NCBI GenBank assembly: GCA_964508365.1
Contig: CAZDTP010000001.1
Span: 99,700 to 163,699 of the forward strand
Direction: 5' to 3'
Length of the DNA stretch: 64,000 nt
Origin: an uncultured archaeon
GTDB lineage: Archaea > Asgardarchaeota > Lokiarchaeia > Sigyniarchaeales > SOKP01
Shown here: one piece after another, positions 5,156 through 41,974 of the stretch
Position numbering within the stretch: position 1 is the stretch's first letter
Layout of the letters: each line of letters begins with the position of its first letter
Made by a program: the position numbers and the translations under genes
Notes under the pieces: generated by a model
What the model was told of the DNA's origin: nothing
The model's input: only the letters and a program-made list of their open reading frames with translations
The model's database searches: none

Positions 5156-6052
5156 TTATGATTTTTTTCTAACAATGTCGCGGATTTTTCTATACCCGAT
5201 TATCTTTAAGTTATACTTTTCAACACATTCTTTAATTTTTGGATTTATAAATGCCTGATAATCGAGATCTCGCCATTTTGCAGTTTCAGGGACTATTGCG
5301 TTTAATTCTGTGCTCATTTTCGCAGCGTGAAACAAAAAATGTGTGATGCCTGGTTTAATCTCGCTAAATCTTTTACAATAGTAATCTGTTTTATTTGGAC
5401 TATCTCCCATCGTATCGATAATCATGTAATCGAGAATAGGAGTACCACTTTCTTCTAATTTCTCAAACATTTTTAAGTAAACATCAATTACATTTCCAAA
5501 ACCTGCGGCTTCAAGCTCTTCCCTAGAGACTCGAGGTAAAAAAGCAGCAACTTTAAATTCTCGAGCTATCTTCAAATAGGAAGGAAGAAATTTAGGATCC
5601 ATGACAGTTCCCATATGAGTGTCTATATGTGTGACATCAATACCACTATCAAGCGCTGTTTGAACTTGAGTACGCATTTCTATTTCTGCTGCTTGAGGAT
5701 TTATATTAGCAATAGCCTCCTCAGCAGTGCGCCACAAGGATCGTTCTGAGTCAAGTAACCCTGTTTTAGGATCTACACTACTCAATGCCCGCCATCTATA
5801 AAGATCATATTCACATGTGAGAGTTAAATGCACACCCATATCATAAGAAGGTTTCTTTTTACATATTGATGCGGTTTCTAAAAACCAAGGTGCAGGGACT
5901 ATTACTGATCCGCAACTAGCGACACCGAAATCCAAACATTCAAAAGTAGCTAGATTTGAAGAGTGAGAAAACCCTACATCGTCAATGTGAAAAATAACCA
6001 CTTTATCAGTGGTTTCAAAACCTAGTTGCTCAATTAGGCTTAGTTTTTTCAT
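5156..6052 (-). CDS. YdjC/ChbG-family carbohydrate deacetylase
   Basis: HIDDVG, GVHLTL, THIDTHMG and FHA motifs. Confidence 0.85.
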   Translation of the reverse strand: MKKLSLIEQLGFETTDKVVIFHIDDVGFSHSSNLATFECLDFGVASCGSVIVPAPWFLETASICKKKPSYDMGVHLTLTCEYDLYRWRALSSVDPKTGLLDSERSLWRTAEEAIANINPQAAEIEMRTQVQTALDSGIDVTHIDTHMGTVMDPKFLPSYLKIAREFKVAAFLPRVSREELEAAGFGNVIDVYLKMFEKLEESGTPILDYMIIDTMGDSPNKTDYYCKRFSEIKPGITHFLFHAAKMSTELNAIVPETAKWRDLDYQAFINPKIKECVEKYNLKIIGYRKIRDIVRKKS

Positions 6053-6124
6053 TTTTATTTTCCCGTCTTAAATTGAATTTTTTTATGGGTCTTTACTAAA
6101 ACAATATAACAAGTGTTATTATAA

Positions 6125-6751
6125 TTACCAAATTGAGAAATCTTTTTCTTTTGAAAAATCCCTTTTTAAAGGTTTTCCAGTCATTAAAGTAAGATATCTT
6201 ATATATGCTGATTGTTCTGCTCCAGTAACATACTGTAATGCGTCTTCTAATGTCATTCCTTTAGCAAATAATCCATGACCTCTTACTACAACAAATGGGT
6301 AATTTTTAAGCATTTTTGGTACTTCTATTGATGTATAATATGCCCCAGCAGGTATTTCAACATCAATAATTGGGATTTTTTTATACAAGGCAAAACCTTC
6401 GGCATCTATACATGTTATTTCATCCTCAATTAAAGATAATGCGACACAATATGGATTATGAGCATGTATGACTGCCATTGCATCAGTTTCTAAATAGATC
6501 GCTCGGTGAACTCCAAGTTCTGTACTAGCGATGAGTGAACTTGAGTCTTCCTCTTTTAAATTACTCACTACTAAATCTTCAAGTTGTAAATCCCCTAACA
6601 TAGCAGCCCTTCTTTTAATAATTATCTTACCTCCACTTCGAATGGAGATATTCCCTGAATGAGATGTATTATAGCCATGCCTAACTAAATGCTTCCCAAC
6701 TTTTTTGAAAATATTATATATTGATTCTTCAACAATCATAAATTTCAACAT
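6125..6751 (-). CDS. Class II (Zn) aldolase, FucA-like; probable rhamnulose-1-phosphate aldolase from context
   Basis: SGNIS, STE (catalytic Glu), HAH and RGHG Zn ligands; in operon with rhaA. Confidence 0.8.
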   Translation of the reverse strand: MLKFMIVEESIYNIFKKVGKHLVRHGYNTSHSGNISIRSGGKIIIKRRAAMLGDLQLEDLVVSNLKEEDSSSLIASTELGVHRAIYLETDAMAVIHAHNPYCVALSLIEDEITCIDAEGFALYKKIPIIDVEIPAGAYYTSIEVPKMLKNYPFVVVRGHGLFAKGMTLEDALQYVTGAEQSAYIRYLTLMTGKPLKRDFSKEKDFSIW

Positions 6752-6759
6752 TTTTTTAA

Positions 6760-8550
6760 TTAAATATGTTTAATACCAAGTTTTTTTAATAATTCTGGTT
6801 CTGGAAATCCGTTAATATCCCACCCTCGTACATAATAGTACTGTTCTAACATTTTTTCTAATGGTACAACATGTCCTTTGGAAACTCCTTCCTTAAGGGG
6901 TTCACTTATAAATCTTGGTGGTAAAATATCGTCTTTTTTACTTAATCCTTCTTTAATATTAAAAATCCTTTCTAAATTATATATTCTTTCCCCTATTTCA
7001 AGAAGTTTTACCACATCATAATCAATTCCTGTAATAGCTTTCATAAACCGAGCATAATAATCAAGTCCTAGAGCCCAACCCGCAAAAGCACATATTACTA
7101 GACTGTCTTCTATGGCTTTTTGATTCTGTTTTAAAACCAGTAAATCAGGTTTTCCTGCCATCGTAAATCTATCAATTTTTTTTGGTGCTGCAAAAATTTC
7201 TAAAGAAGCCATGTATCCAGTTAGGTGACATCCTCCTCTATTTGATGTAGCGTAACCCAGCGCATGTCCAATAGCCCCCCTTGGATCATATGCAGGCAGT
7301 TCTAATCCTTTTACCTGCATAGCAACTTCTTCAGAGTTGTAGCTTTTAGAAAGTAATCTTGAGCCCTCACTAATTTGAGCTCCAATATCCTCTTTTAAAG
7401 CAATTTTTTTCACTAATTCTTTTAGGATATTACTATTTCCAAATTGAAGAGAAGAATCTTTTAGGAGCCCCATTTCCTGCAACTCCATGGCACAAGCAAT
7501 ACTTCCACCACAAGATATTGTATCAATTCCATACTTATTGCATAAATAGTTTGCTTGAGTAACCGTGATTAAATCGTATATACCAAGATTAGGTCCAAGA
7601 GCCCAAACAGATTCATATTCAGGACCTTTACCTTTCATATCACCTGCTCTTGTTAATCTGCCACATCTTATAGGACAGGCATAACAACCCTCGTGTTCTT
7701 GGGTTAATTTTTTATTTATTTCCTCACCGCTAACTTGAGTAGCTCTCTCATCAAAACCCTTTTGAAAATTATTTATTGGAAACATACCTAGTATATTAAT
7801 CACATTAACCAAAGCTGAAGTTCCAAACAGAGGTAAAGAAGAACGGGTAATAGGAACAACTTTTATCTTATCTTGGGCGACTTTCACATATTTCTTCAAT
7901 AAATCTAGATTATCAATATCAATTTTGGTATCCCCACCTTTCACTACAATTGCCTTAAGGTTTTTAGAACCCATAACAGCTCCAACACCACCTCTACCAA
8001 ATGCTCTCGCCGCATCGTTCATTATTGCAGCAATTTTTATTAAGTTCTCACCTGCAGGTCCAATCATCAATGAATTAATTCTATTACCTTCGAGCTTTTT
8101 TAATTCTTCAAAAGTCTTTTCAGTGTCACACCCCCATAATCTTGAAGCTTCTTTAATAACAATTTCTTTTCCACCCTCGATTAATAGATATCCGGGTTCT
8201 TTTAATGCTCCTTGAATTAAAATACCATCATACCCACATCTTTTCATAACGACACTGAAGGAACCACCTGAATTAGAATAGAATATTCCATTTGTTAAAG
8301 GTGATTTTGTTACTAATGAAAAACGGCCATTAGTAGGCACTATTGTTCCGCCAAAAGGACCTGTCGCAAAAATTAGTAAATTTTTTGGATCTAGAGGATT
8401 AAGATTTACTGGAAGCTTATCTGATAATAATTTTACTCCTAAACCTCTTCCTCCTATATAATCTAATAAAATTTCTTCAGGAACAGGTACTTCATTAAAC
8501 TTATCGTGATTTAAATCTACTTCAAGAATTTTGTTATTTAATCCTTTCAT
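6760..8550 (-). CDS. aor: Aldehyde:ferredoxin oxidoreductase (W/Mo-bispterin AOR family)
   Basis: GGRGLG, GRGGVGAVMGSKNLKA, C-x2-C-x3-C (CYACPIRC), EYES, DTIS and RGGCH motifs. Confidence 0.92.
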   Translation of the reverse strand: MKGLNNKILEVDLNHDKFNEVPVPEEILLDYIGGRGLGVKLLSDKLPVNLNPLDPKNLLIFATGPFGGTIVPTNGRFSLVTKSPLTNGIFYSNSGGSFSVVMKRCGYDGILIQGALKEPGYLLIEGGKEIVIKEASRLWGCDTEKTFEELKKLEGNRINSLMIGPAGENLIKIAAIMNDAARAFGRGGVGAVMGSKNLKAIVVKGGDTKIDIDNLDLLKKYVKVAQDKIKVVPITRSSLPLFGTSALVNVINILGMFPINNFQKGFDERATQVSGEEINKKLTQEHEGCYACPIRCGRLTRAGDMKGKGPEYESVWALGPNLGIYDLITVTQANYLCNKYGIDTISCGGSIACAMELQEMGLLKDSSLQFGNSNILKELVKKIALKEDIGAQISEGSRLLSKSYNSEEVAMQVKGLELPAYDPRGAIGHALGYATSNRGGCHLTGYMASLEIFAAPKKIDRFTMAGKPDLLVLKQNQKAIEDSLVICAFAGWALGLDYYARFMKAITGIDYDVVKLLEIGERIYNLERIFNIKEGLSKKDDILPPRFISEPLKEGVSKGHVVPLEKMLEQYYYVRGWDINGFPEPELLKKLGIKHI

Positions 8551-8552
8551 TA

Positions 8553-9827
8553 TTATATCCTGTTCACTAAGGTTTCGCGTTCATATACTTCCACACTTTT
8601 AATCCAATCTTTTCCAACTGGTACGTTACACTTGTAACAGTAATAATCCCATACAGCTCCAAACGGAAGAGATTTAATTTCTTCGAGATATGCTAATCTT
8701 TGAAATAATTGGTTATTCTCTTCATATTCCTTTAATAGCTCCAAAGGTTGTAATAAAGCATTTAATAGGCTTTTCAAAGTTGCTCTAGCCCCTATAATCC
8801 ATGCACCGAGACGATTTATAGAGGCATCAAAAAAATCTAATCCAAGGCAAATTTTTTCACGGTTTTTGCATCTGATTATTTCCTCAGAAAGGTGCATCAA
8901 ATCATCGTTTAAAATGACAACATGATCGCTGTCCCACCTCACACCTCGACTAATATGAAGCATTATTCCATCAAGGAATGGTAAGATTGCCGTAATTTTA
9001 TCTGCAACGGATTCAGTAGGATGAAAATGACCCGTATCTAGTGTGAGCATGAGATTATTCTTCACAGCGTAACTTAAATAAAAATCATGACTCCCAACAA
9101 CAAATGCTTCGCTCTCTATTCCAAATAATTTTCCCTCAAGAGAATCTTTCATATATTCTGGATTATACTTCTGATTAAAAATGTGATCTAATGAATTCTT
9201 CAATAAATCTCTATGCCCTGCTCTATCCACGGGAATATCTTTAGAACCATCAGGAATCCATAAATTGTGAATTACAGGATTATTTAACTGCCTTCCAATC
9301 TCAGCACTTATTTCTCGACACTTTTGAACATGTTCGATCCAGAAATTTCTAATTTCTGAAGATTTGCTGCTCAAGGTATAACCTGAATCAGCTTTAGGGT
9401 GTGAAAAAAGTGTAGAATTAAAATCCAATCCTAATTTCTTTTCCTTTGCCCAATCTATCCAATTTTGAAAATGTTCAGGTTTAATTGCGTTCCTGTCTAT
9501 AAATTTACGTTTAAAATCTCCATAAGAAGCGTGTAAATTAACTCTTTGATTGCCAGGGATTAATGATAGCGCTTTAGTCAGATCCATTTGAAGCTCTTTA
9601 ATGGTTCTTGCTTTACCAGGATAATTTCCCGTTGATAAAATTCCCCCTCCGGTAATTACGGATTCAGGACGCTCAAAACCGCCTACATCATCCCCTTGCC
9701 AACAATGGATTGATAAGGATATTTGTTTTAGCTCATTTAAAGCTAAATCAGTATTAACTCCAAATTCTTTATACTTATCTTTTGCAACTCCATAGAGATT
9801 TTTTAAATCTTGAAGCAAAAAAACCAC
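8553..9827 (-). CDS. rhaA: L-rhamnose isomerase (E. coli RhaA type)
   Basis: SIHCWQGDDVGGFE, GNYPGKAR, LDTGHFHPTE, RGVRWDSDH and GLDFFDASINR motifs. Confidence 0.95.
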   Translation of the reverse strand: MVFLLQDLKNLYGVAKDKYKEFGVNTDLALNELKQISLSIHCWQGDDVGGFERPESVITGGGILSTGNYPGKARTIKELQMDLTKALSLIPGNQRVNLHASYGDFKRKFIDRNAIKPEHFQNWIDWAKEKKLGLDFNSTLFSHPKADSGYTLSSKSSEIRNFWIEHVQKCREISAEIGRQLNNPVIHNLWIPDGSKDIPVDRAGHRDLLKNSLDHIFNQKYNPEYMKDSLEGKLFGIESEAFVVGSHDFYLSYAVKNNLMLTLDTGHFHPTESVADKITAILPFLDGIMLHISRGVRWDSDHVVILNDDLMHLSEEIIRCKNREKICLGLDFFDASINRLGAWIIGARATLKSLLNALLQPLELLKEYEENNQLFQRLAYLEEIKSLPFGAVWDYYCYKCNVPVGKDWIKSVEVYERETLVNRI

Positions 9828-9929
9828 ACTCTAATTATTAAAATTTTACCTGCTAATAAAAATTTATAATTTATAAACGGTTATAATGATTTATATTTAC
9901 TACTAACAATCCTAAATTGAAATAATAGT

Positions 9930-12617
9930 ATGATAAAACCTCCATTTGATTTAAAATGCGAATATCTCGTTAGTCCCATTTGTATTGATGTACGAAAACC
10001 ACGATTTTCTTGGAAATTAGCCCATGAACAAAGAAACCAAAATCAGTCGGCTTACCAAATAATTGTCTCCTCTAATAGTTTTTTCTCTGAAGAAAAAAAA
10101 GGAGATATTTGGGACAGTGGAAAAGTGGAAACGGATTCAAATGTAAATGTATCTTATAATGGGGTGCCTTTAGAAAGCGATAAAAGATATTATTGGCGAG
10201 TAAAATGGTGGGATAACAATGATAAAGAGAGCGAATATTGTGATATTCAACAATTTGAAACTGCCTTGTTTGAAGAATCTGATTGGAAAGGCCAATGGAT
10301 TAGTAGAGAAGAATTCATCAATAAATCGAATCGAAAGAAATGGCAATATAAATCCGGGGGAAGGAATTTAGCAGGACGAATTAAAGAAGTACATGCACTT
10401 TATTTAAGAAAGGAATTTTCTACTTTAAAACAAATTAAATCTGCGAAAGTATACATTTGTGGTTTAGGTTATTATGAATTACACATAAATGGAAAAAAAA
10501 TTGGAGATCGAATTCTTGAACCGGCACAAACTGATTATAATAAATTAGCTTTGTATTCAACTTATGATGTATCAGAACTTTTACAAGAAGAGAACGCTAT
10601 AGGTGTTATTTTAGGAAATGGTCGGTGTGTTGAACTATTTGGTTATGATTTTCCCAAATTAATACTGCAAGTAAACATTCATTACACTGATGGTAATAAG
10701 GAAATCATTAGTACAGATGATTCATGGAAAATATCTATTGGACCTATTAAAGAGAATGGAATTTATTTTGGTGAAATTTATGATGCCAGACTTGAGATGC
10801 CAGGATGGAATAAATCTAAATTTGATGATAAGGAATGGAAAAATGCAGCTATGGTAGATGGACATAATTTATCTTCACAGATGATGCAACCTATCCAAAT
10901 TACTAAGAGTATAGAACCTCGAGAGATTTATAGTCCTAAACCGGGTATGTATATCATTGACTTTAAACAGAACTTTACTGGTTTTGTGAAATTGAAAACT
11001 AGTGGTCCTCGCGGTTCAGAAGTAAAATTAAGATTTTCTGAAATATTGTTTAAAGATGGTACTCTCAATACTGCTACAAATGGAAATGCACCAGTAACTG
11101 ATGTATATATCTTAAAAGGAGAGGGAGAGGAATGTTATATACCACATTTTACATATCATGGGTTTCGATATGTCGAGATCACGGGTTTTCCGGGAGTTCC
11201 ATCTTTGAATAATTTCGAGGGATTATTCTTTCATTCGAATGTTCCAAAAGTGGGGGATTTTTACTGTTCTAACACCCTTATTAATCAAATACATTCAAAT
11301 ATTATATGGGGTCAATTAAGTAACTTAATGAGTATTCCTACTGATTGTCCTCAAAGGGATGAGCGCCAGGGATGGATGGGGGATGCTCAACTCGCTACAG
11401 AAGAAGCAATTTTAAACTTTGATATGGCTCGATTTTTCACTAAATATTTAAGAGATATTAGAGAATGTCAAAAGGAAGACGGAAGTATTTCCGATGTTGT
11501 TCCGCCTTACTGGAAATTATACCCTGCAGATCCTGCATGGGGGAGCGCTTACATAACAATTGCATGGTACTTATATTGGTATTATAACGATTTTCGTGTT
11601 CTTGAAGAAAATTATGAAGGAATGAAGAATTATATCGAATTTCTTGTCTCAAAATCTGAAGATAACCTGTTTCTAATGGGAAAATTTGGTGATTGGTGTC
11701 CACCATGTTCTATAGTATCAAGAAAAACGCCATTAGAATTCACTTCTTCTTGGTATTTTTATCATGATGTTTTTTACTTCTCAAAAATTGCAGAAATACT
11801 TGGAAAAAACGAAGAAAAAGTATTTTTTAAAAATAAATCTGAGGAGATTAAAACCGCCTTCAATAAAAAATTTCTCAAGGTTTATTATGAAACAACAAAA
11901 CTCTCTCCAGTAGATCGATCAGTGAGCCAAACATCGAATGTTTTACCTCTCTTTTTAAACATGGTTCCTGATAAAAAGAAAAAGAAAGTAATATCGACTT
12001 TAATTAACGCCATTATAGAAGATCACGATTACCATCTAGATACTGGAATCGTAGGAACGAGGTATCTATTTGATGTTTTATCTGATAATGATTATCCAGA
12101 AGTAGCATACAAGATGATAACTCAAGAAAGTTTTCCAAGTTATGGATATATGATTAAAGAGGGAGCTACCACATTATGGGAACGCTGGGAAAAACTAGAA
12201 GGAGGCGGAATGAATTCACATAATCATATTATGCTCGGTTCAGTCGATACTTGGTTTTATAAAACTCTAACTGGAATTAGATGTGAATCTCCAGGTTGGG
12301 GATCAATAAAAATTAAGCCTTTTATCCCTGATGATATGTATTATGCACGATCAACAATAAAAACTTGTAGGGGTATTCTTTCTTGTTCCTGGGAAAAGTT
12401 AAGTAATTCTTTAAAAGTATCTTTAACCATTCCAGTAGGGATGAGAGCTGAATCTTGGATACCAATTAATAATTCAAGCAAACAAGTCAAAGAAAATGCT
12501 AAAATTATTTGGAAGGAAGGTAAAGTATTGAGTGAAGACATTATACTATCGAATCAAAATGAAAATTGCTTAGTTTTTACCCTTGGTTCTGGTTTTTATA
12601 CCTTTGAAATAGAGTAA
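9930..12617 (+). CDS. Alpha-L-rhamnosidase (GH78)
   Basis: PTDCPQRDERQGWMGD, GATTLWERW and SHNHIMLG motifs; typical length. Confidence 0.93.
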   Translation: MIKPPFDLKCEYLVSPICIDVRKPRFSWKLAHEQRNQNQSAYQIIVSSNSFFSEEKKGDIWDSGKVETDSNVNVSYNGVPLESDKRYYWRVKWWDNNDKESEYCDIQQFETALFEESDWKGQWISREEFINKSNRKKWQYKSGGRNLAGRIKEVHALYLRKEFSTLKQIKSAKVYICGLGYYELHINGKKIGDRILEPAQTDYNKLALYSTYDVSELLQEENAIGVILGNGRCVELFGYDFPKLILQVNIHYTDGNKEIISTDDSWKISIGPIKENGIYFGEIYDARLEMPGWNKSKFDDKEWKNAAMVDGHNLSSQMMQPIQITKSIEPREIYSPKPGMYIIDFKQNFTGFVKLKTSGPRGSEVKLRFSEILFKDGTLNTATNGNAPVTDVYILKGEGEECYIPHFTYHGFRYVEITGFPGVPSLNNFEGLFFHSNVPKVGDFYCSNTLINQIHSNIIWGQLSNLMSIPTDCPQRDERQGWMGDAQLATEEAILNFDMARFFTKYLRDIRECQKEDGSISDVVPPYWKLYPADPAWGSAYITIAWYLYWYYNDFRVLEENYEGMKNYIEFLVSKSEDNLFLMGKFGDWCPPCSIVSRKTPLEFTSSWYFYHDVFYFSKIAEILGKNEEKVFFKNKSEEIKTAFNKKFLKVYYETTKLSPVDRSVSQTSNVLPLFLNMVPDKKKKKVISTLINAIIEDHDYHLDTGIVGTRYLFDVLSDNDYPEVAYKMITQESFPSYGYMIKEGATTLWERWEKLEGGGMNSHNHIMLGSVDTWFYKTLTGIRCESPGWGSIKIKPFIPDDMYYARSTIKTCRGILSCSWEKLSNSLKVSLTIPVGMRAESWIPINNSSKQVKENAKIIWKEGKVLSEDIILSNQNENCLVFTLGSGFYTFEIE

Positions 12618-12833: not shown

Positions 12834-14195
12834 ATGGAAAGTCAAAATAAAAAACAACTTAGTTCAAGAAATTTATGGGGCTATGCTTTAGGAGCCATTC
12901 CTAATGGACTACTAGTATTTATATTTGGATTAAAATATATTGAGCTCTTTTTCGACAAACTACAATTAAACCCAACTCTTTTTGTTATCGGACAAGTAAT
13001 ATATTTAGTAGTAAATGCTTTGAATGACCCTTTACTCGGTCAGATGTCAGATCGAACAAATCCTAAAAAATGGGGGAGTAGAAGGACTATTTACATCAAA
13101 TATGGTGCTCCCATTTGGGCGTTAACATTTATGATCGTCTGGTTTCCTTGGAGTTTCGACAATCAAATAATAATATTTATTCACTTTATTATAAGCGTTT
13201 GTTTATTTGATACTTTTTTTACATTGGTTGTTCTAGTATGGATGGCATTAATGCCCGAAATGACATCTGATTTGGACGAAAGGAATAAAGCAAATTTACT
13301 TGCCACTATAGTTGGTGCTGTCTTTGTAATTCCAATGTTCATAATTGTAGGAGTTATGGATCCAACTTCATCGGAATTTATATTCTTAATGCTTATTGTT
13401 GCTATTGTATCTACAATCTTATTGATCATCACTGCTTCTCTATGCCAAGAAAAACCCGAATTTCAAAAAGATGAGGGTCTTCCATTAATTAAAGCAGTAA
13501 AAGAAACTCTAAGGCTAAAGTCATTCTTAACTTATATGGGTTATATCTTCTGCGATGCATTTCTCGGTTCGATTGGTTTAAGTTATCTTTTTGTTTATTT
13601 ATTGGTTTTAGGTGAAGGTGGGCTATTATACTATTTTGCGATTTTTTTCTTTATTGGATACGGTTCTAACATTCTTTGCATGAAATTAAGACCAAAGTGG
13701 GGGATGCGTAAGATATTACTAAGGTTTGGAGTCTTGAAAGTCATATTTACTTTCATCTTATTTGCACTCGTAGTCTTTACAGACGCTCCTATAATAGTGG
13801 TGTTTGGCCTAGCAATACGAACATTTCTGGGAGGGTATACTGTATTTAATACACCAATATTATACCTATCTATAGATGAGGATGAGTTGAGAAATGGATC
13901 AAGAAGAGAGGGCATGTTCATAGGTATGGATGCTTTAATCCATAAACCTTCTCAAAGTATTGGTCCAATCGTCGCAACGTTTATCCTTGGTATTTTTGGA
14001 TACATACAAAATTCTGATCTACAAACAGATTCTGCATTGCTTGGTATTAAAATACTAATGTTTTTGGTTCCCGCAATAGTAAGTGCCATTGGTCTAATTT
14101 TTATGTTCTTCTATCCGATACATGGAGAGAAGTTAGACCAATTGAGAGAAAAACTCCAAAGCCTCCATACGGAAAAACGAGAAAGACTTGAATAA
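12834..14195 (+). CDS. MFS glycoside-pentoside-hexuronide (GPH) sugar symporter
   Basis: About 12 hydrophobic segments, NALNDPLLGQMSDRT (loop 2-3) and DEDELRNGSRREG motifs. Confidence 0.88.
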   Translation: MESQNKKQLSSRNLWGYALGAIPNGLLVFIFGLKYIELFFDKLQLNPTLFVIGQVIYLVVNALNDPLLGQMSDRTNPKKWGSRRTIYIKYGAPIWALTFMIVWFPWSFDNQIIIFIHFIISVCLFDTFFTLVVLVWMALMPEMTSDLDERNKANLLATIVGAVFVIPMFIIVGVMDPTSSEFIFLMLIVAIVSTILLIITASLCQEKPEFQKDEGLPLIKAVKETLRLKSFLTYMGYIFCDAFLGSIGLSYLFVYLLVLGEGGLLYYFAIFFFIGYGSNILCMKLRPKWGMRKILLRFGVLKVIFTFILFALVVFTDAPIIVVFGLAIRTFLGGYTVFNTPILYLSIDEDELRNGSRREGMFIGMDALIHKPSQSIGPIVATFILGIFGYIQNSDLQTDSALLGIKILMFLVPAIVSAIGLIFMFFYPIHGEKLDQLREKLQSLHTEKRERLE

Positions 14196-14253: not shown

Positions 14254-15753
14254 TCACCTTGTAAATTTTAAAAATTCTTCATATCCATTCATCCAACTCT
14301 CTACATCTTCAGGATAATAATCTATAATTGTAAACGATTGTATCACAATATTTCTTAGTTCATCAAGACGGTTTATTAGTCCTACTGCCTTTGCTTGCAT
14401 CAAAATATTACCAATAGCGGTGGCCTCGACTGGTCCTGCTTTAATAGGAATATTTAGAGAATTAGCTGTAAATTGATTCAGTAGATGGTTAGTAGATCCT
14501 CCACCAATTATAAATAAAATTTCAACTTTTTTATCTGTAATTTTTTCCATTAATTCAATTACTTGTTTATATCTAAATGCAAGACCTTCGAAAATTACCC
14601 TTGAAATATCACCTATTGTATTTGGTGGAATTTGATTACTCTTTTCACAATAATCATGTATCGCTTTGATCATGTCTGGAGGATTATGGAAGAGAGCATC
14701 GTCAGGATTTATGAAACATTGAAACGGTTTAGCTCCCTCAGCACTAGATATAATATGCTCCCAATTATGATATAAACCTTGGTTCTCCCATTCTTTTTTA
14801 CATTCTTGAATAATCCACAATCCAGTTACATTTTTTAAAAATCTAATAGTATTTTCAACTCCACCCTCGTTCGTAAAGTTAAACTCAAGTGATTTAGCGT
14901 TTATTATGGGTTTATTTAATTCTATCCCTATAAGGCTCCATGTCCCAGAACTAAGATATGCCCATTCTCCTCTCCTATACTTTCTCATATCAACAGGGAC
15001 TGCTGTTATTGCAGAACCTGTGTCATGACAAGCAGGAGCGATAATGTTTGTATCTTTTTTTAACCCGACTTCTTGGGCAATATCCTCTTTTAGTTTTCCT
15101 AATACTGTTCCGGAGGGGATAATCTTTTGAAATAATTTAAGTTCTAATCCTAACTTTTCAATTAACTTTTGAGACCAATCTAAAGTCTTTGGATTGAATA
15201 ATTGAGTTGTTGTAGCAATTGAGTACTCTGAACACTTTTTGCCGCATAATAAATAATTTAAATAATCGGGTATCATTAGAAATGTTTCAGATATGGTTAA
15301 TTGTGAAGAATTGTTATGGATAAGAGAATATAACTGTGTAGAACTATTGAGCTCCATAAATTGTATACCTGTCTCATTAAATATCTCCTCTTTAGACACC
15401 TTCTCAAACATAAATTTAAGCATTCCTTTAGTTCTCGAATCTCTATAATGATGGCTTGGACCAACAGGTTCGTTGTATTTATCCAACAAGATAAAATCTA
15501 CACCCCATGTATCTATGCCTATACCATCGACGTGGTTTCCATATTTGGATACATACTTTTTGAGCCCATTTGATATTTCAGTATAGATACCGAAAATGTC
15601 CCAAAGAAAGGAGTCACCTTTTCTAATCCCGCTATTAGGAAACCGATAAATTTCATCTAAAGCAAGTTTGTTATCATTTAGTGTCCCTACAATAGCTCTT
15701 CCTGAACTGGCTCCAATATCAAACCCTAAAAGTCGCTTCAAAATGTGTTCCAC
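14254..15753 (-). CDS. rhaB: Rhamnulokinase (FGGY family)
   Basis: FDIGASSGR, GIDTWGVDF, HDTGSA, SSGTWSL, NEGG and GGGS motifs. Confidence 0.9.
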   Translation of the reverse strand: MEHILKRLLGFDIGASSGRAIVGTLNDNKLALDEIYRFPNSGIRKGDSFLWDIFGIYTEISNGLKKYVSKYGNHVDGIGIDTWGVDFILLDKYNEPVGPSHHYRDSRTKGMLKFMFEKVSKEEIFNETGIQFMELNSSTQLYSLIHNNSSQLTISETFLMIPDYLNYLLCGKKCSEYSIATTTQLFNPKTLDWSQKLIEKLGLELKLFQKIIPSGTVLGKLKEDIAQEVGLKKDTNIIAPACHDTGSAITAVPVDMRKYRRGEWAYLSSGTWSLIGIELNKPIINAKSLEFNFTNEGGVENTIRFLKNVTGLWIIQECKKEWENQGLYHNWEHIISSAEGAKPFQCFINPDDALFHNPPDMIKAIHDYCEKSNQIPPNTIGDISRVIFEGLAFRYKQVIELMEKITDKKVEILFIIGGGSTNHLLNQFTANSLNIPIKAGPVEATAIGNILMQAKAVGLINRLDELRNIVIQSFTIIDYYPEDVESWMNGYEEFLKFTR

Positions 15754-35437: not shown

Positions 35438-35923
35438 TCACTCGTACTTTTTCATTCCTTCATTAATACAATTTATTATCTCATCGCGTGCTTTTCGAAA
35501 ACCTTCAAGACCCTTCATTGAAGGATCTTCAATATCACCATTCTTTCCAGCAAATTCCCTTAATGTAAAAATCGGTTTATTCTCTAACTTAAAATTATCA
35601 TAGATTTCTTCTTTATGTTTCTCTGTTAAGGCGAGAATTAAGTCAGCTTCTTGAATTAATTCAGGATGTTTTTTTAAGTCAATTGAGAGAGAGTCATCTG
35701 AAAGAGGAATACCGATTTCCTTCATAACTAATTTCGCATCTAAAGAAATGAGCATCCCATCTCTAGCGTTTGAAGCGATACCACCGGAAGATACAGAAAC
35801 ATCCATTGCATTACGAGAAAAGAAATCTCTAAGAAATCCTTCAGACATCCTACTTCTTGCAGTATTAACGCTGCAAACAGTAAGAATTTTCGTATAAGGA
35901 AAGCGGTTATGTTTATGAGTCAT
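35438..35923 (-). CDS. Low-molecular-weight protein tyrosine phosphatase family
   Basis: P-loop CSVNTARS (C-x5-R) and DIEDP general-acid motif; lacks the resolving Cys pair of Trx-coupled ArsC. Confidence 0.85.
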   Translation of the reverse strand: MTHKHNRFPYTKILTVCSVNTARSRMSEGFLRDFFSRNAMDVSVSSGGIASNARDGMLISLDAKLVMKEIGIPLSDDSLSIDLKKHPELIQEADLILALTEKHKEEIYDNFKLENKPIFTLREFAGKNGDIEDPSMKGLEGFRKARDEIINCINEGMKKYE

Positions 35924-36007
35924 TGATATTATAGAAAATTCTTTTTCTTAATAATTAGTTTTTGGAATGATCCGGACAAGAAAATAATTCAATAAATTCT
36001 CGCAAAT

Positions 36008-36679
36008 CTAGAAGAAGTCTTTAGTAGCAAACTTTATTCCTTTCTTCTTCATGTATTGGAGAGATTTAGAGATGTTACCCGGAGGTAAATCTATACCTCT
36101 AGTTAAATTTACTAAAAAATAGACCTCGAAACCAAAAGCTATCCCATCTAAAGCAGTAAAATAACAACAATAGTCCAGAGCTAGTCCACAAATAAAAATT
36201 CTTTTAATTTTCAGGGCTTTAAGATAACCTTTAAGTCCAGTTTCAGATTTTTTATCATTTTCAATAAAGCCTGAATAACTATCTACCTCCGGATTATAAC
36301 CTTTACGGATTATGGCGTGAGCGAGATCAATATTCAATTTATCATGAAACTGTGCTCCTTTTGTACCTTGTACACAGTGATCTGGCCATAATACGGGACC
36401 AATACCCTCAGATTGAAATTCATCACCTGGATTTTTATTATTATAGTTACTAGCAAACGATTTATGATTTTTGGGATGCCAATCCTGTGTCAATATGATC
36501 TTTCCATTATTCTCTTTAAAAATCTTAGAGATTTGATTTATACTATCAATTATTTGATCGCCTTCATCGACAGGTAAAGCCCCACCCGGCATGAAATCAT
36601 TTTGCATATCAATAATAATCAGTGCATTAGTATTATCAATATGCATATTTTTTTGATGATATAGTTTCTCAAGGCTCAT
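36008..36679 (-). CDS. pncA: Nicotinamidase/pyrazinamidase
   Basis: IDMQNDF, DWHP, WPDHC, RKG..YSGF and GLALDYC motifs. Confidence 0.93.
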   Translation of the reverse strand: MSLEKLYHQKNMHIDNTNALIIIDMQNDFMPGGALPVDEGDQIIDSINQISKIFKENNGKIILTQDWHPKNHKSFASNYNNKNPGDEFQSEGIGPVLWPDHCVQGTKGAQFHDKLNIDLAHAIIRKGYNPEVDSYSGFIENDKKSETGLKGYLKALKIKRIFICGLALDYCCYFTALDGIAFGFEVYFLVNLTRGIDLPPGNISKSLQYMKKKGIKFATKDFF

Positions 36680-36758: not shown

Positions 36759-39458
36759 CTAAGTATCTTTTATAGCTTGCTTTTTAAACAACTTGAAATA
36801 AAATGTTGATCCTTTATTTCTGCCTCCAGATTCAACCCAAATGTTTCCTCTGTGTAGATCTATTATTTCCTTTGAAATATACAAACCTAAACCAGATCCT
36901 TCGATGTCAATATCCATTTTGAGACCTATTCGTTCTATCTTTCCAAATTTCGTGAATAGTTTATCCATATCTTTTTCCGTCAATCCTATACCCGAATCCG
37001 TTACTTTAAATAATACGCTATCTGGTTTATCCTCTAAAACTAATGATATAATCCCCTTCCTTGGAGTATTTTTAATCGCATTTGAGATGAGATTAGTGAT
37101 AACTTGTTCAATTCTAAGTTTATCTACTACAATATTTACCGTTTCAGGTAAGTGTTGCTCTATGATAAGATTTCGTTTATAAGCTAGGTATCGAATTTCA
37201 TTGGTGCTATCCCGTACAATTTGTGTTATGTCCTCATTTTGAAGATTTAATTTTAATTTATCAGATTCAATTCTTGAAGCATCAAGTAAATTATCAGTTA
37301 AAAGTTTTAATCTCTTTCCCCCTCTATTAATCAATTCGATGAATTCTATCGCATCTAAACACATCTTATCTTTATATAATTCCAATAAAAGTTGAGTTCC
37401 CCCATATATTGAAGTTATCGGAGTTTTCAACTCGTGAGAAGCTCTCGAGACAAACTCAGATTTTATCCTGTTAAGTTCCATTAATCTTTTATTTTCTTCA
37501 ATTATGAGGTTTTCAGCTTTTTTTTTACTAGTGATGTCTTGACAAATCGATTCAATTATAATTTCCTTATCAATTTTAATCATTGAAATCAGAAAAGATA
37601 TCCAAGATATATTGCCATCTTTTCTTTTTATCTGTAGCTCAATTGGTTTGGGTTTAATGCCATTGACAAGATCTTTATACATCCTTTTAATAGTTGAGAT
37701 CTGATTATAAGTAACTATATTGAATTCCGTATAGTTTCTCCCAATTATCTCCTCTCGTTTATATCCAAGAATTCTTTCTGCTGATGAATTGAGATCTATT
37801 ATTAATCCCCTTTCATTCGCTAAAACTACAGCAGTAGGAGAGCTTTTATACAAACTTCGATATTTTTCCTCTGATTCTTTAAGAGCTTTTTCAGTTTTTT
37901 TCCTCTCGGTAATATCGCGAGATATAAATAAGTATTTTTGATTACCTCGTTCATCGGTAAACATTTTTGCTTTATTCTCAACCCACACCCACTTACCGTT
38001 TTTATGTTTTATCTTTGTTTCATGCATATTTTCTCCAAGTTTGAATAATTTAAGCATAAAACGACGGACTTTTTTATTATCATCAGGATGGTTAAGGAGA
38101 ATCGAGTTTTTACCTAATATTTCTTGCTTAGTATACCCTAATAAATTTTTGAGAGAAAGTTCGTTTACATATTCGATTTCAAACTTTTCATTTAATACTC
38201 TAATGAGATCGTTAGATTCTTCCGTAATAAGACGATATTTTTGTTCCGATTCCTCTAGCTTACGTTCAGCATTTTTTTTGTCAGTAATATCGCTTAACAT
38301 TGAAATTAACCCAACCAAATTTCCCTCATCATCGTAATAATTTTTAGAGGAACTCGAAATCCAAATATAATCTCCATCTTTAGGTAATATTCTAAATTCA
38401 ATAGGGCTATCAAGAAACTCTTTCTTTTTAAGTGCGGTTTTATAAGAAGTGATCAATTTCTTGACATCCTCTTTATGTATGTATTGAAAGAATCTACTGT
38501 TCTTGTTGATTTCTCTCCCTTTCAACATATTTGATAATTGAGGTGAGACATATAATAATTTTCCCTCAAAATCTATAATAACGATAGCATCCTTAGTATT
38601 TTCGACAATATTTCGAAATTCCTTTTCAGATTTCTTCAATTTTATTTCTGTAATCTTTCTATTTGTAATATCTTTTAAAATTGATACAACTTGGACGACC
38701 TTTCCTTCGATAAACACTGGTATTTTCCTTACCTCTGTGTAAATCTCTTTTTCCTTAAGTTGTGTGAATTCTTCACTTATCAGCGTTTTTCCCGTTTCAA
38801 AAACCTGGTGATACTCTTTGATTACTTTTTCTGGTAAAAAAGGAAAGACAGTGGAGATTCTTCTCCCAAGTAGATCTTGATTAATGTTGAATCTGTCTAG
38901 CCATTTTTTTAATGTATTATTTGTTAGAATAATTCTCAAATCTGAATCAACTACATGTATTGGGTTTCCCATAGATTCAATAATATTGCTATAATGATGT
39001 TCCGAATCTTTTAACTTCACTTCTGCTATCTTTTTTTCTGTAATATCTCGAATTACTGCCATTATTTTAGTTATACCTTCATGTTTGATGATTCCTCCTT
39101 TAGCTGAAACATAAATATAGCCGCCATTTTTGTGTTTTGCTCTATATTCATATGATATATGCTTTTGATCTTCTATCGCACTTTTTATTTTATTTAATAC
39201 TTGTAATAGATCATCAGGATGAATAAAGCGAAAAACTTTTCTTCCAATGACTTCATAAGGTTTATATCCAAACATTTTATAACATTGAGGACTTATATAA
39301 GTAATATTGCCTTCTAAATCAGTTTCTATAATCGTATCCAAAATATCATTTATAATTATCCGGTAAAAATCGTTAGGAGCCTCAAGTGGTTTTTGCCCAT
39401 TTTTCTTATCTAAAATCAATGTTTCATAACCTCTATTATTATAAATTAAAAAAAACAA
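36759..39458 (-). CDS. Cytoplasmic sensor histidine kinase with five PAS/PAC domains
   Basis: Five segments ending in DIT; HisKA SHELKTP; N box NLISNAIK; DSGIG and GSGLGL boxes. Confidence 0.9.
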   Translation of the reverse strand: MFFLIYNNRGYETLILDKKNGQKPLEAPNDFYRIIINDILDTIIETDLEGNITYISPQCYKMFGYKPYEVIGRKVFRFIHPDDLLQVLNKIKSAIEDQKHISYEYRAKHKNGGYIYVSAKGGIIKHEGITKIMAVIRDITEKKIAEVKLKDSEHHYSNIIESMGNPIHVVDSDLRIILTNNTLKKWLDRFNINQDLLGRRISTVFPFLPEKVIKEYHQVFETGKTLISEEFTQLKEKEIYTEVRKIPVFIEGKVVQVVSILKDITNRKITEIKLKKSEKEFRNIVENTKDAIVIIDFEGKLLYVSPQLSNMLKGREINKNSRFFQYIHKEDVKKLITSYKTALKKKEFLDSPIEFRILPKDGDYIWISSSSKNYYDDEGNLVGLISMLSDITDKKNAERKLEESEQKYRLITEESNDLIRVLNEKFEIEYVNELSLKNLLGYTKQEILGKNSILLNHPDDNKKVRRFMLKLFKLGENMHETKIKHKNGKWVWVENKAKMFTDERGNQKYLFISRDITERKKTEKALKESEEKYRSLYKSSPTAVVLANERGLIIDLNSSAERILGYKREEIIGRNYTEFNIVTYNQISTIKRMYKDLVNGIKPKPIELQIKRKDGNISWISFLISMIKIDKEIIIESICQDITSKKKAENLIIEENKRLMELNRIKSEFVSRASHELKTPITSIYGGTQLLLELYKDKMCLDAIEFIELINRGGKRLKLLTDNLLDASRIESDKLKLNLQNEDITQIVRDSTNEIRYLAYKRNLIIEQHLPETVNIVVDKLRIEQVITNLISNAIKNTPRKGIISLVLEDKPDSVLFKVTDSGIGLTEKDMDKLFTKFGKIERIGLKMDIDIEGSGLGLYISKEIIDLHRGNIWVESGGRNKGSTFYFKLFKKQAIKDT

Positions 39459-39693
39459 AGAATTATCCCCTTACAACTGAACTTGCATGCAAAGAAGGAC
39501 TAGCTAAAAATTCGCTGAAAAATGTAAATAATTCTCCTTAAATGTAATTCTAGGAAAAACAGATTTTAACAATATTCAAAAAAGAGACTTGTTCGTTAAT
39601 TTAGTACGAAAATTAATTTCATTAAAATCACAAGATTAATAAAAAAAATTTATTTGCGAATTGTCATTAATAAATAGTACTTCTCAATTTATT

Positions 39694-39764
39694 GCGCTTG
39701 TAGTAAAGTGGTATTATACCAGGTTCCCAACCTGGTGTCCCGGGTTCAATTCCCGGCAGGCGCA
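39694..39764 (+). tRNA. tRNA-Gly (anticodon CCC)
   Basis: Acceptor GCGCTTG/CAGGCGC+A, anticodon stem CCAGG/CCTGG with loop TTCCCAA, T-arm CCGGG-TTCAATT-CCCGG. Confidence 0.95.
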
Positions 39765-39778
39765 TTTATTTTTTATCT

Positions 39779-41974
39779 CTACCATGAAAGACCTTTACTA
39801 AATCTTAAGTCGCTGATTATTTTTTTAACTTCGTGACTAGGAACTTCCATAAAAGAGTGAAACTCATTCTGCCAAAATGATTTACCCGATGTGCTGGATC
39901 GGATATTTTCAGCAAATTTTATCGAGTTTCTTACTGGAATAAGGATTTCTATTACTGTTTGATAATCCTTTTCTTGATTAACATTCAATATTTTCGCAGA
40001 ATACTTCGAAAGTAACGAGAGAGTGATTTTTGTGTAATCGGGAGGTAATTGAATGATTGTATGATAAATAGGTTCGAGTAGGATAAGGTTAGCTTCGTTC
40101 AAAGCTTTTTTAATAGCATCATAGAACAATGTAGATAATTCTGTAAAAGCGTTTTCTTCTTTAAGTTCAGAAATGATTAATTCGTTAATTTTAACCTTAA
40201 TTCCAGTAATTTTTTCACCACATAAAAATCCGTTTGAAAGTATCTTTCCAACGATTTCTTCTATACTTTCTTTATAAACAGGGTCAAAAACTTCCTCCAT
40301 TTTATAAAAAAGCAGATTGTCATCTTCAAAATACCTCCAGAAGTTTTGTATTTCCTCTAATGTTAAATCTGTATGTTCCTCAAATAGTGCTTTCAATCTC
40401 GCCTTAGGTTTAATTGCTACTAAATCGTGAGTTTGTAAAAACCTTGAAGTCTTATCCTTTATTCTTTCAATTTTAAGTTTAAGAGAATTCCTGTTATTTT
40501 GCGATTTTACGGTGACAAGGGAAGAATCGTTCTTACAAGATTCTTTGAACACTGCGCGTGGCTCCGAAATAGAAACATTAATACCTCGTTTTTCTATCTC
40601 CTTTGCAGTGATTTCAAGATGTAGCGGCCCAACTCCCGAAAGCAAGAATTCGCCGTTTTCCTCGTTAATTTCAAATTTAAGGTTTGGGTCTTCTATTAAT
40701 AAGTTTTCAATTAGTTCCTTCATTTTGTCAAGTTCTCGTAAATACTCCGGTTCGATTGAAACGGTTACTACAGGAGTAGATACATATTTAACATCTTCAA
40801 AAGGAACCATTAGACCGGCAAGATCTTTGTTGATTAGCGTTTCACCGCTTTGAAATCGTTTTAATCCTTCAATTGCTACAATGTTACCAACAGGTATTTG
40901 TTCGACTTGTTCCCTTCTTTGTCCCATAAAGAGAGCTATCCTTCGGATTGTATCATAATTGTTTTCTCTTACCAAGAAAACATCTTCTTTCATTGAGCAC
41001 ATTCCGGAAAAGATTCTACCCGTCCCTATTAACCTATGTTTATCTACTTGTACCTTGCTCAAACAAATAATCATAGGTCCTTTGGGATCACAATTTATCA
41101 TAGCTTTTCCGATATCCGATTCTAAATCTCCCTCCCAGATCTTTCCAATTCTGTAAGTTTGCGCCTCTTTAGGATTGGGGAGATGGTCCACTACCATTTC
41201 TAATATGGCGTTATGTATTGGAAAATAAACTGCTAAATCAGCATAACTCTCTTTAGTGTAAGTTTCTTTATGATAACGAGTTCTAATATCAGAAAACTTT
41301 AGATCGTTCTTTTCTAATAGATGTAAAGTAAAACCCCATTTGTGAAGCGCGGAACCAAATGCCACATTTCCCAATATCGGAGATACTTGCCACTGCTTTT
41401 TAAATGGTTTGTCAGCGTATCGTTTTACAAGAGTATTGAAATTCTTGATTATTCTAGAGTATTTTATTCTTATTTGGTCATCACTTAGCTTTAATTCCCG
41501 GATAAGACGATCGATTTTGTTAATAAAGAGGACTGGTTTTACACCTTCCTGTAAAGCTTGTTTAATCACAGTCTCTGATTGAGTTATTATCTCTTCAACA
41601 GCATCAACAACTACCACAACCCCGTCTATTAATCTTAAAGCGCGAGTTACTTTTCCACTGAAATCCAAATGTCCAGGCGTATCGACGAGGTTTATTAGAA
41701 ATGGTTCATGGTCTTCAAGTGATTTTTCGTAGTATAATGAAATATTAGTAGATTTCATCGTGATCCCACGAGCTTGTTCTTCCTCTAAATAATCTAAGGC
41801 ACGAGCCTCGCCAGCTAAATCTGGCGATAGTAACCCTGCTTCACTTAGAAGGGAATCTGAAAGTGTAGTTTTACCGTGATCTATATGACCTACTAAACCT
41901 ATGTTTCTAATATTCTTGGTTTTTTCCATCATATTCAATATTTCTGAAATCTCCTTTCTACGGGGCATGTTCAC
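39779..41974 (-). CDS. Elongation factor 2 paralogue (aEF-2p type, no diphthamide His)
   Basis: GHIDHGKTT, RGITM, DTPGH, NKID and GSA G-motifs; domain IV loop reads ISELKEENAFTEL instead of LHEDAIHRGPAQ. Confidence 0.85.
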   Translation of the reverse strand: MNMPRRKEISEILNMMEKTKNIRNIGLVGHIDHGKTTLSDSLLSEAGLLSPDLAGEARALDYLEEEQARGITMKSTNISLYYEKSLEDHEPFLINLVDTPGHLDFSGKVTRALRLIDGVVVVVDAVEEIITQSETVIKQALQEGVKPVLFINKIDRLIRELKLSDDQIRIKYSRIIKNFNTLVKRYADKPFKKQWQVSPILGNVAFGSALHKWGFTLHLLEKNDLKFSDIRTRYHKETYTKESYADLAVYFPIHNAILEMVVDHLPNPKEAQTYRIGKIWEGDLESDIGKAMINCDPKGPMIICLSKVQVDKHRLIGTGRIFSGMCSMKEDVFLVRENNYDTIRRIALFMGQRREQVEQIPVGNIVAIEGLKRFQSGETLINKDLAGLMVPFEDVKYVSTPVVTVSIEPEYLRELDKMKELIENLLIEDPNLKFEINEENGEFLLSGVGPLHLEITAKEIEKRGINVSISEPRAVFKESCKNDSSLVTVKSQNNRNSLKLKIERIKDKTSRFLQTHDLVAIKPKARLKALFEEHTDLTLEEIQNFWRYFEDDNLLFYKMEEVFDPVYKESIEEIVGKILSNGFLCGEKITGIKVKINELIISELKEENAFTELSTLFYDAIKKALNEANLILLEPIYHTIIQLPPDYTKITLSLLSKYSAKILNVNQEKDYQTVIEILIPVRNSIKFAENIRSSTSGKSFWQNEFHSFMEVPSHEVKKIISDLRFSKGLSW

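Follow-up and report, generated by a model that had tools for sequence, protein, structure and literature searches.

In the phosphorylative deoxyhexose pathways of the E. coli type (RhaA-RhaB-RhaD for L-rhamnose, FucI-FucK-FucA for L-fucose), an isomerase, an FGGY kinase and a class II zinc aldolase act in succession, and the rhamnose and fucose routes have in common only their products, dihydroxyacetone phosphate (DHAP) and L-lactaldehyde (PMC3870299). As enzymes that deal with lactaldehyde, the same comparative study of rhamnose regulons describes AldA, RhaO/FucO, RhaZ and the fused protein RhaEW (YuxG) of Bacillus subtilis and Chloroflexus aurantiacus, whose dehydrogenase activity is required for aldolase turnover and which is called non-homologous to the L-rhamnose enzymes characterised earlier; ferredoxin and tungsten are nowhere mentioned (PMC3870299). 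Tungsten-dependent oxidation of lactaldehyde nevertheless has precedent as chemistry, since WOR1, a tungsten oxidoreductase of Eubacterium limosum, oxidises lactaldehyde among several short aldehydes in vitro (PMC11725836). Here we analyse a 64,000-nucleotide stretch of DNA from an uncultured Lokiarchaeial archaeon (the window; contig C1, positions 99700-163699), in which the genes for an E. coli-type L-rhamnose isomerase (RhaA), an enzyme of the aldehyde:ferredoxin oxidoreductase (AOR) family and a small class II aldolase form a tightly packed unit. The host genome assembly, 149 contigs with a total of 4.07 Mb, is 100% complete as judged from marker genes, and the nearest protein relatives are found in metagenome-assembled genomes named as Lokiarchaeota or Promethearchaeota. 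The diketo-hydrolase route of Haloferax, an archaeal system for the same sugar, is of an oxidative, non-phosphorylative kind that employs neither isomerase, kinase nor aldolase and sets no lactaldehyde free. An earlier annotation made from the letters of the window only (the sequence-only reading) had set the locus apart from characterised archaeal rhamnose routes, and for Haloferax volcanii an L-rhamnose diketo-hydrolase pathway is indeed cited (Reinhardt et al. 2019, as cited in PMC10838023); the window locus likewise points to archaeal rhamnose catabolism, but is of the phosphorylative type.

We consider it probable that the locus encodes a phosphorylative L-rhamnose pathway with a changed last step, in which the AOR would oxidise L-lactaldehyde to lactate via ferredoxin instead of NAD. 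With the E. coli-type pathway it would share the isomerase, kinase and aldolase steps, RhaA being a clear ortholog, but it has a 208-aa FucA-like aldolase in place of canonical RhaD, its host is an archaeon, and instead of an NAD-linked aldehyde dehydrogenase (ALDH) or an iron-containing alcohol dehydrogenase (Fe-ADH) serving as reductase, the operon itself encodes an AOR-family enzyme (pterin plus Fe-S, ferredoxin acceptor). Similar to RhaEW, the locus would hard-wire the aldolase to the oxidation of lactaldehyde to lactate, albeit by two genes and a ferredoxin-linked AOR rather than by one fused NAD-dependent polypeptide. By contrast, WOR1 is electron-bifurcating, uses NAD and ferredoxin, is tied to lactate metabolism and has no link to an aldolase or to rhamnose and fucose genes (PMC11725836). 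The sequence-only reading knew of no described pathway of this kind and neither do we: our literature search revealed no paper that connects AOR to lactaldehyde, rhamnose or fuculose as parts of one pathway, none joining Lokiarchaeota with rhamnose isomerase and no publication that reports a phosphorylative deoxyhexose route for an archaeon, with the qualification that the in vitro activity of WOR1 was already in print. The only paper retrieved for AOR together with fuculose is a review on biorefining with Clostridia, and a review on acetogens names AOR and lactaldehyde reductase as separate entries of a figure legend. Most likely, the locus represents a phosphorylative deoxyhexose pathway in a variant form, with a ferredoxin-linked lactaldehyde step that is new to the literature found, and, as far as published cases go, the phosphorylative route itself would be new for archaea. 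The three genes of the unit are:

8553-9827, (-) strand: rhaA, E. coli-type L-rhamnose isomerase, 424 aa; opens the unit of three genes
6760-8550, (-) strand: AOR-family gene, 596 aa, AFOR_N and AFOR_C domains; proposed L-lactaldehyde:ferredoxin oxidoreductase
6125-6751, (-) strand: small FucA-like class II aldolase, 208 aa, Aldolase_II domain; proposed L-rhamnulose-1-phosphate aldolase

The coordinates and spacings reported earlier for these open reading frames (ORFs) are exact, as the sequence reads TAA-TA-ATG at the rhaA/AOR junction (a gap of 2 nt) and TAA-TTAAAAAA-ATG at the AOR/aldolase junction (8 nt). From an alignment of AOR orthologs we fetched 79 loci, one genome per species, and scored their neighbours by tblastn. 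Sixty full-length AOR relatives are at least 45% identical to the window AOR, and in 53 of the 55 that come with downstream DNA the small aldolase lies immediately downstream on the same strand; in one of the two exceptions the aldolase is 7.4 kb away, and in the other none is found within a flank of only 877 nt. None of nine AORs below 45% identity is followed by the aldolase, and the 13 other AOR-family matches of the host genome, none more than about 40% identical, come from contigs without a class II aldolase. The aldolase-linked AORs form one clade in the tree, with a support of 100 (99 after adding representatives at 50% identity), whose members come from Asgard archaea (Loki, Thor, Hel, Hermod and Hod), Bacteroidales, Lentimicrobiaceae, Atribacterota and Bacillota including Halanaerobiales. 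Because the triad or the pair is found again on dozens of independent contigs, the arrangement is far beyond chance, and it is not peculiar to this contig, as the sequence-only reading had considered it might be: in two domains of life the pair occurs near RhaA (15 loci) or FucI (15 loci).

Over the 53 loci, pairwise identities of the AOR correlate with those of the aldolase (r = 0.93; 0 of 999 Mantel permutations reached the observed value), which is supporting evidence and not proof, since relatedness by itself yields some correlation. That the two sets of identities track each other suggests that the pair travels as a unit, between domains too. Bacteroidota pairs (L042-L063 and L081-L085) nest within Asgard branches, with both proteins 55-64% identical to those of the window, and this topology suggests an exchange between Asgard archaea and Bacteroidota in one direction or the other. 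Within the genus of the window, 13 of 41 genomes carry RhaA and 14 of 41 the aldolase; all 13 RhaA genomes carry the aldolase, and the pair is confined to RhaA genomes save for one incomplete genome. Ten of the 13 were also in the AOR sample, where each has an AOR ortholog that adjoins RhaA wherever coordinates are listed. A length-based search with the aldolase revealed no AOR-aldolase fusion proteins, which is weak evidence. One further locus (L069), in a record titled Candidatus Nanopelagicaceae bacterium, has the same GH4-rhaB-GPH-GH78-rhaA-AOR-aldolase order with 94-100% protein identity and is almost certainly a mis-binned Lokiarchaeial contig.

We then clustered all ORFs flanking the pair in 61 pair-bearing loci. 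This census returned the following neighbours:

GH78: 15 loci
rhamnulokinase-like kinase: 15 loci
GPH/MFS carrier: 15 loci
RhaA: 15 loci
FucI: 15 loci (one checked example scores 1093 bits against a cut-off of 775)
GH29 fucosidase: 13 loci

All neighbour families present in at least 13 loci are thus rhamnose or fucose genes or a sugar carrier. When only loci of at least 12 kb are considered (n = 41), a deoxyhexose marker is present in 28, with RhaA alone in 11, FucI alone in 8 and both in 2. Individual cases include another Asgard metagenome-assembled genome (MAG) with the rhaA-AOR-aldolase order, a Bacteroidota MAG in which the AOR-aldolase pair is accompanied by a rhamnulokinase-like kinase and GntR, another with GH29 and GH95, and a metagenome contig with FucI and sulfatases whose AOR recurs in a Bacteroidales MAG (L045). 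On the basis that the AOR is locked to the aldolase in both rhamnose and fucose loci, and that these routes share DHAP and L-lactaldehyde alone, the AOR is most simply explained as a lactaldehyde enzyme. Comparative genomics (the linkage, the clade and the rhamnose or fucose neighbours) in this way supports, with reasonable though not high confidence, the earlier proposal that lactaldehyde would be converted to lactate and reduced ferredoxin by the AOR.

The AOR protein itself matches PF02730 (242 bits) and PF01314 (450 bits), which together span residues 6-593, and by its scores it is assigned to the classical AOR subfamily: it aligns with Pyrococcus furiosus AOR (1AOR) at 545 bits and with the solved structures 9G7J, 9MQX and 8C0Z at 517, 497 and 428 bits, while the other AOR genes of the host genome score 338 bits or less against it. 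Its residues C289, C292, C296 and C487 align with the [4Fe-4S] ligands Cys288, Cys291, Cys295 and Cys494 of 1AOR, and E313 and H442 match the catalytic Glu313 and His448; all six are invariant across 15 orthologs. The four solved enzymes resemble the window AOR in their architecture of two Pfam domains and approximate length, whereas the window clade differs from these classical AORs by its constant aldolase partner and its deoxyhexose neighbours. In searches of the PDB, three representatives of the clade gave nearly equal scores of 474-522 bits, and 1AOR matches each member tried at 485-545 bits, scores so similar that they place 1AOR neither inside nor outside the clade. P. furiosus AOR and the other solved AORs are broad-range aldehyde oxidisers, and because AORs are typically broad in substrate range the linkage is no proof of specificity, a point that weighs against our proposal. 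To our knowledge, almost no AOR-family enzyme has an assigned physiological substrate, and a clade locked to an aldolase in rhamnose and fucose loci offers a concrete, testable role for an abundant enzyme family.

Breadth of substrate leads to a first alternative, namely that the pair is a general aldehyde-disposal module whose aldolase would cleave various ketose-1-phosphates (5-deoxyribulose-1-phosphate, or methylthioribulose-1-phosphate from radical-SAM/methionine salvage) and whose broad AOR would clear the resulting aldehyde, the deoxyhexose loci being one use of it. Several observations speak for this and to that extent against a dedicated lactaldehyde enzyme: sugar genes are absent from 13 of the 41 long loci, including loci of the Thor type with PadR, radical-SAM and pyridoxal phosphate (PLP)-enzyme neighbours; the aldolase has weak matches to MtnB and ribulose-1-phosphate aldolase models; and a distant pair (P0134, 41% identity), in a neighbourhood free of sugar genes, keeps the small aldolase beside an S-adenosylhomocysteine (AdoHcy) hydrolase, a PNP-family phosphorylase and a phosphoribosyltransferase. 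This last pair hints at other aldehydes, and WOR1 is broad in vitro as well (PMC11725836). However, in the window the pair sits in the rhaA unit of a genome with no other rhamnulose-1-phosphate aldolase, within the genus it occurs only alongside RhaA with the single exception given above, and the recurrent neighbour families of the census are without exception those expected of rhamnose and fucose use. We consider a general module to be unlikely.

Of the upper part of the proposed L-rhamnose pathway, the isomerase is clearly represented. RhaA matches Pfam PF06134 at 600 bits and NCBIfam NF002203 at 631 bits (cut-off 572), and RhaA, the rhamnulokinase-like kinase and GH78 are each single-copy in the host genome. 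The kinase scores 483 bits on TIGR02627, short of the cut-off of 528; this model leads by a wide margin, the next being fuculokinase at 143 bits; the same type of kinase accompanies the AOR-aldolase pair in RhaA loci and in FucI loci alike.

The assignment of the small aldolase is less direct. It matches Pfam Aldolase_II (PF00596) at 106 bits, and its top NCBIfam match is NF006413 ('aldolase') at 187.7 bits against a cut-off of 203. Its nearest solved relative is the fuculose-1-phosphate aldolase of Thermus thermophilus (2fk5), and it aligns with E. coli-type FucA at the zinc ligands H96, H98 and H159, the catalytic E78 and the phosphate-site residues N34, S76 and T77, all of which are at least 95% conserved in the 61 pair-linked homologs. 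From the context of RhaA or FucI and the kinase, we infer that it would cleave L-rhamnulose-1-phosphate (L-fuculose-1-phosphate in relatives) to DHAP and L-lactaldehyde. It is the only candidate in a rhamnose context among the three class II aldolase genes of the host genome, none of which is of the RhaD type, and a tblastn search of this genome with a true RhaD came back empty, so that a canonical 274-aa RhaD was not found in it. The two remaining FucA-like genes lie on contig C10, one beside a TIM-barrel isomerase and the other fused to a 2-hydroxyacid dehydrogenase and adjoining a xylulokinase-like FGGY kinase, and both look like parts of other pathways. The C10 genes in question (L024: 11107-12789, 13331-14848, 8167-8841 and 7318-8148, all on the (-) strand) include the fusion, a 560-aa protein in which a D-2-hydroxyacid dehydrogenase is joined to a FucA-like aldolase, and look like an uncharacterised sugar-acid or pentulose module.

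Two findings on this protein count against the role that we propose. First, it stays below every curated FucA and RhaD cut-off (23.9 bits on RhaD model NF002963, cut-off 170; at most 63 on FucA models, cut-offs 250-400) and for this reason constitutes a separate subfamily. Second, a true RhaD follows directly on the small aldolase in six Bacteroidota loci (NF002963, 277 bits against 170), which indicates that the small protein does not serve everywhere as the sole aldolase; it may be specific for fuculose or otherwise employed. Such tandems of a small aldolase and a 274-aa RhaD are found in L060, L062, L063 (5285-6109) and L053, among others. Taken to its limit, this would mean that the small protein is no rhamnulose-1-phosphate aldolase but an AOR accessory or an enzyme for another phosphosugar, with the AOR acting on a different aldehyde or in detoxification and the rhamnose pathway either incomplete or served by a FucA-like paralog from C10. 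We regard this as improbable, given the conserved zinc, catalytic and phosphate-site residues, the kinship with a fuculose-1-phosphate aldolase and the 13 Asgard loci in which rhaA-AOR-aldolase occurs with no RhaD in view; moreover, a locus serving both rhamnose and fucose would equally be expected to hold RhaD alongside the small aldolase.

A lactaldehyde step by AOR would also be called into question by a dedicated lactaldehyde enzyme co-regulated elsewhere in the genome, a scenario raised in the sequence-only reading, and we found none. There is no FucO/RhaO/RhaZ reductase or AldA at the locus, and none of the three Fe-ADHs (180-214 bits on FucO models, cut-off 523) and two ALDHs (443 and 233 bits on the archaeal lactaldehyde dehydrogenase model, cut-off 650) of the host genome passes a FucO or lactaldehyde dehydrogenase cut-off. 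These five proteins, in particular the ALDH at 443 bits, could nonetheless handle lactaldehyde and in this respect weaken the case for the AOR. We rejected them as hidden co-regulated lactaldehyde enzymes on the basis of their neighbours (an LRR protein, a tRNA synthetase, PPDK, a PAS protein, Spt5 and hydrolases), none of which provides a sugar context. We likewise rejected the idea that the host genome has another route for rhamnose or fucose, as neither FucI nor RhaD was found there and a lone GH29 beside a distant AOR paralog (35% identical) on contig C109 was judged unrelated. A 475-aa protein of the window (62232-63659, (+) strand) whose sole domain is Fucose_iso_C weakly matches a sulfoquinovose isomerase model (103 bits, cut-off 700) and is no FucI ortholog.

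As the sequence-only reading had noted, GH78 and rhaB are close to the unit. The remaining features of the locus are:

9828-9929, no strand: divergent intergenic region between rhaA and GH78, 102 nt, AT-rich, with TATA-like TTTATAAA motifs
9930-12617, (+) strand: GH78 alpha-L-rhamnosidase, 895 aa, five rhamnosidase Pfam domains
12834-14195, (+) strand: GPH/MFS_2 sugar:cation symporter, 453 aa (PF13347, 175 bits)
14254-15753, (-) strand: rhamnulokinase-like FGGY kinase, 499 aa (TIGR02627, 483 bits)

The spacer probably contains promoters, and the surrounding 25 kb form a glycan-use island with GH20, a YdjC deacetylase, GH4, GH2 and a sulfatase. In the pathway that we propose, GH78 is predicted to free L-rhamnose from glycans, and the GPH/MFS_2 protein, a candidate carrier of rhamnose or rhamnosides, would import it. 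RhaA would convert rhamnose to L-rhamnulose, the FGGY kinase would phosphorylate the latter to L-rhamnulose-1-phosphate, and the FucA-like zinc aldolase would split this into DHAP and L-lactaldehyde. The AOR, whose gene stands between those for RhaA and the aldolase, would then oxidise L-lactaldehyde to L-lactate and pass two electrons to ferredoxin, thus replacing an NAD-linked AldA or an NADH-consuming FucO. Reduced ferredoxin could finally be reoxidised by a hydrogenase or serve a syntrophic partner, and [NiFe] hydrogenase large-subunit matches in the host genome represent a possible electron sink. If so, the cell would gain low-potential electrons for H2 instead of reducing lactaldehyde to propanediol, as would suit a syntrophic lifestyle. 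Elsewhere, the AOR-aldolase pair would act as a portable lower module, combined with FucI and fucosidases rather than with RhaA and GH78. The sequence data establish the identity of the genes, the intactness of catalytic and cofactor residues, the close packing of the unit, a conserved linkage specific to one clade, co-inheritance and purifying selection; what the aldolase and the AOR act on, which way the reaction runs and which electron acceptor and metal are used is inferred.

A further difficulty for an active AOR comes from cofactor supply. The sequence-only reading had pointed to tungsten-uptake and pterin genes as something to look for in the rest of the genome, and by profile models none turned up: the host genome has no match to the MoaA C-terminal domain, MoaC, MoaE or MoeA_N and none to WtpA, PF12849 (PBP_like_2) or PF13531 (SBP_bac_11), the latter two being the binding-protein families of TupA and ModA. 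A single ORF with a MoCF_biosynth domain was found. The same cofactor and uptake models are positive in 11-14 of 14 control genomes, with the exception of the WtpA model, which is positive in 6. MoaC is present in 71 of 151 Asgard genomes that are at least 90% complete and in 4 of 19 from the genus of the window, while 260 of 300 phylum genomes carry AOR-family genes, which give 14 matches in the host genome. Such AOR-rich genomes without pterin genes suggest cofactor scavenging or a novel synthesis route, and they make the loading of tungsten enzymes in these cells a question of its own.

On the basis of these absences, one may argue that the AOR is a non-functional apoprotein without pyranopterin. 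Against this, rhaA, the AOR gene and the aldolase gene are under strong purifying selection, with dN/dS values relative to close orthologs of 0.07-0.15, 0.07-0.11 and 0.03-0.04, respectively, and this holds also in members of the genus that lack MoaC, which argues that the AOR genes are in use; moreover, the retention of AOR genes in the host genome and across the phylum argues that the cofactor is obtained somehow. Alternatively, the AOR could work reductively, with reduced ferredoxin driving the conversion of lactate or another acid to an aldehyde for an alcohol dehydrogenase, as AORs of acetogens are known to reduce acids and as the host genome does contain Fe-ADH genes, one of them directly upstream of another AOR paralog; yet the pathway itself supplies lactaldehyde, so that making it from lactate would be pointless, and the irreversible kinase and glycosidase steps point to catabolism. 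To either possibility, a reductive or an inactive AOR, we accord a low probability.

Catabolic oxidation of lactaldehyde by the AOR also fits with parallel modules in the vicinity of the clade. In the next Asgard AOR group, a sister clade at 44-51% identity, a DeoC-family gene lies directly upstream of the AOR gene in 12 of 16 sampled loci, and the copy that was checked (in L111) is a genuine deoxyribose-phosphate aldolase (DERA) with 270 bits on TIGR00126 (cut-off 117). DeoC releases acetaldehyde, and the DeoC-AOR pair looks like a DERA-AOR module for this aldehyde. DeoC-AOR loci are L113-L122, L127, L128 and L111, in all of which the AOR gene lies near position 6000. Two representatives at 45-46% identity have the AOR fused to an OMPdecase/HUMPS-family (PF00215) domain, and one further representative is a fusion of Fe-ADH and AOR. 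Together with the distant pair P0134, these cases support a general scheme in which an AOR clears the aldehyde set free by its lyase, and they warn that the coupling of aldolase and AOR is older and broader than deoxyhexose use. The long AOR representatives P0126 (832 aa), P0129 (992 aa) and P0243 (1026 aa) are fusions with an OMPdecase/HUMPS-family domain or Fe-ADH; we had considered the long representatives as aldolase fusions and rejected this, as the partners are an OMPdecase/HUMPS domain, ferredoxin domains or Fe-ADH.

As a tentative generalisation, which we regard as possible but would not bet on, the classical AORs of anaerobes, and of Asgard archaea especially, might constitute a set of hard-wired aldolase and AOR modules, each clade dedicated to the aldehyde of its partner, with the lactaldehyde module having moved between Asgard archaea and Bacteroidota and working even in pterin-less genomes. 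In that event, the FucA-like aldolase would assign its AOR to lactaldehyde (from rhamnose and fucose), DeoC to acetaldehyde (from deoxyribose-5-phosphate) and the PF00215 fusion to formaldehyde, provided that this domain is a hexulose-phosphate synthase, and the cofactor would have to be scavenged from syntrophic partners or made by a new synthesis route.

Other AOR paralogs of the host genome have neighbours of their own. On contig C79, an Fe-ADH gene (L027: 4278-5570, (+) strand) ends 15 nt upstream of an AOR paralog (5586-7460, (+) strand), and on contig C29 a LUD-domain protein of the lactate-utilisation type (35665-36354) is encoded 2 kb upstream of another (38338-40173). Finally, the window encodes at 54344-56716 on the (-) strand a 790-aa protein with PCI, E3 UFM1-ligase, DDRGK and VPS28-like Pfam matches, which looks like an Asgard eukaryotic-signature protein.

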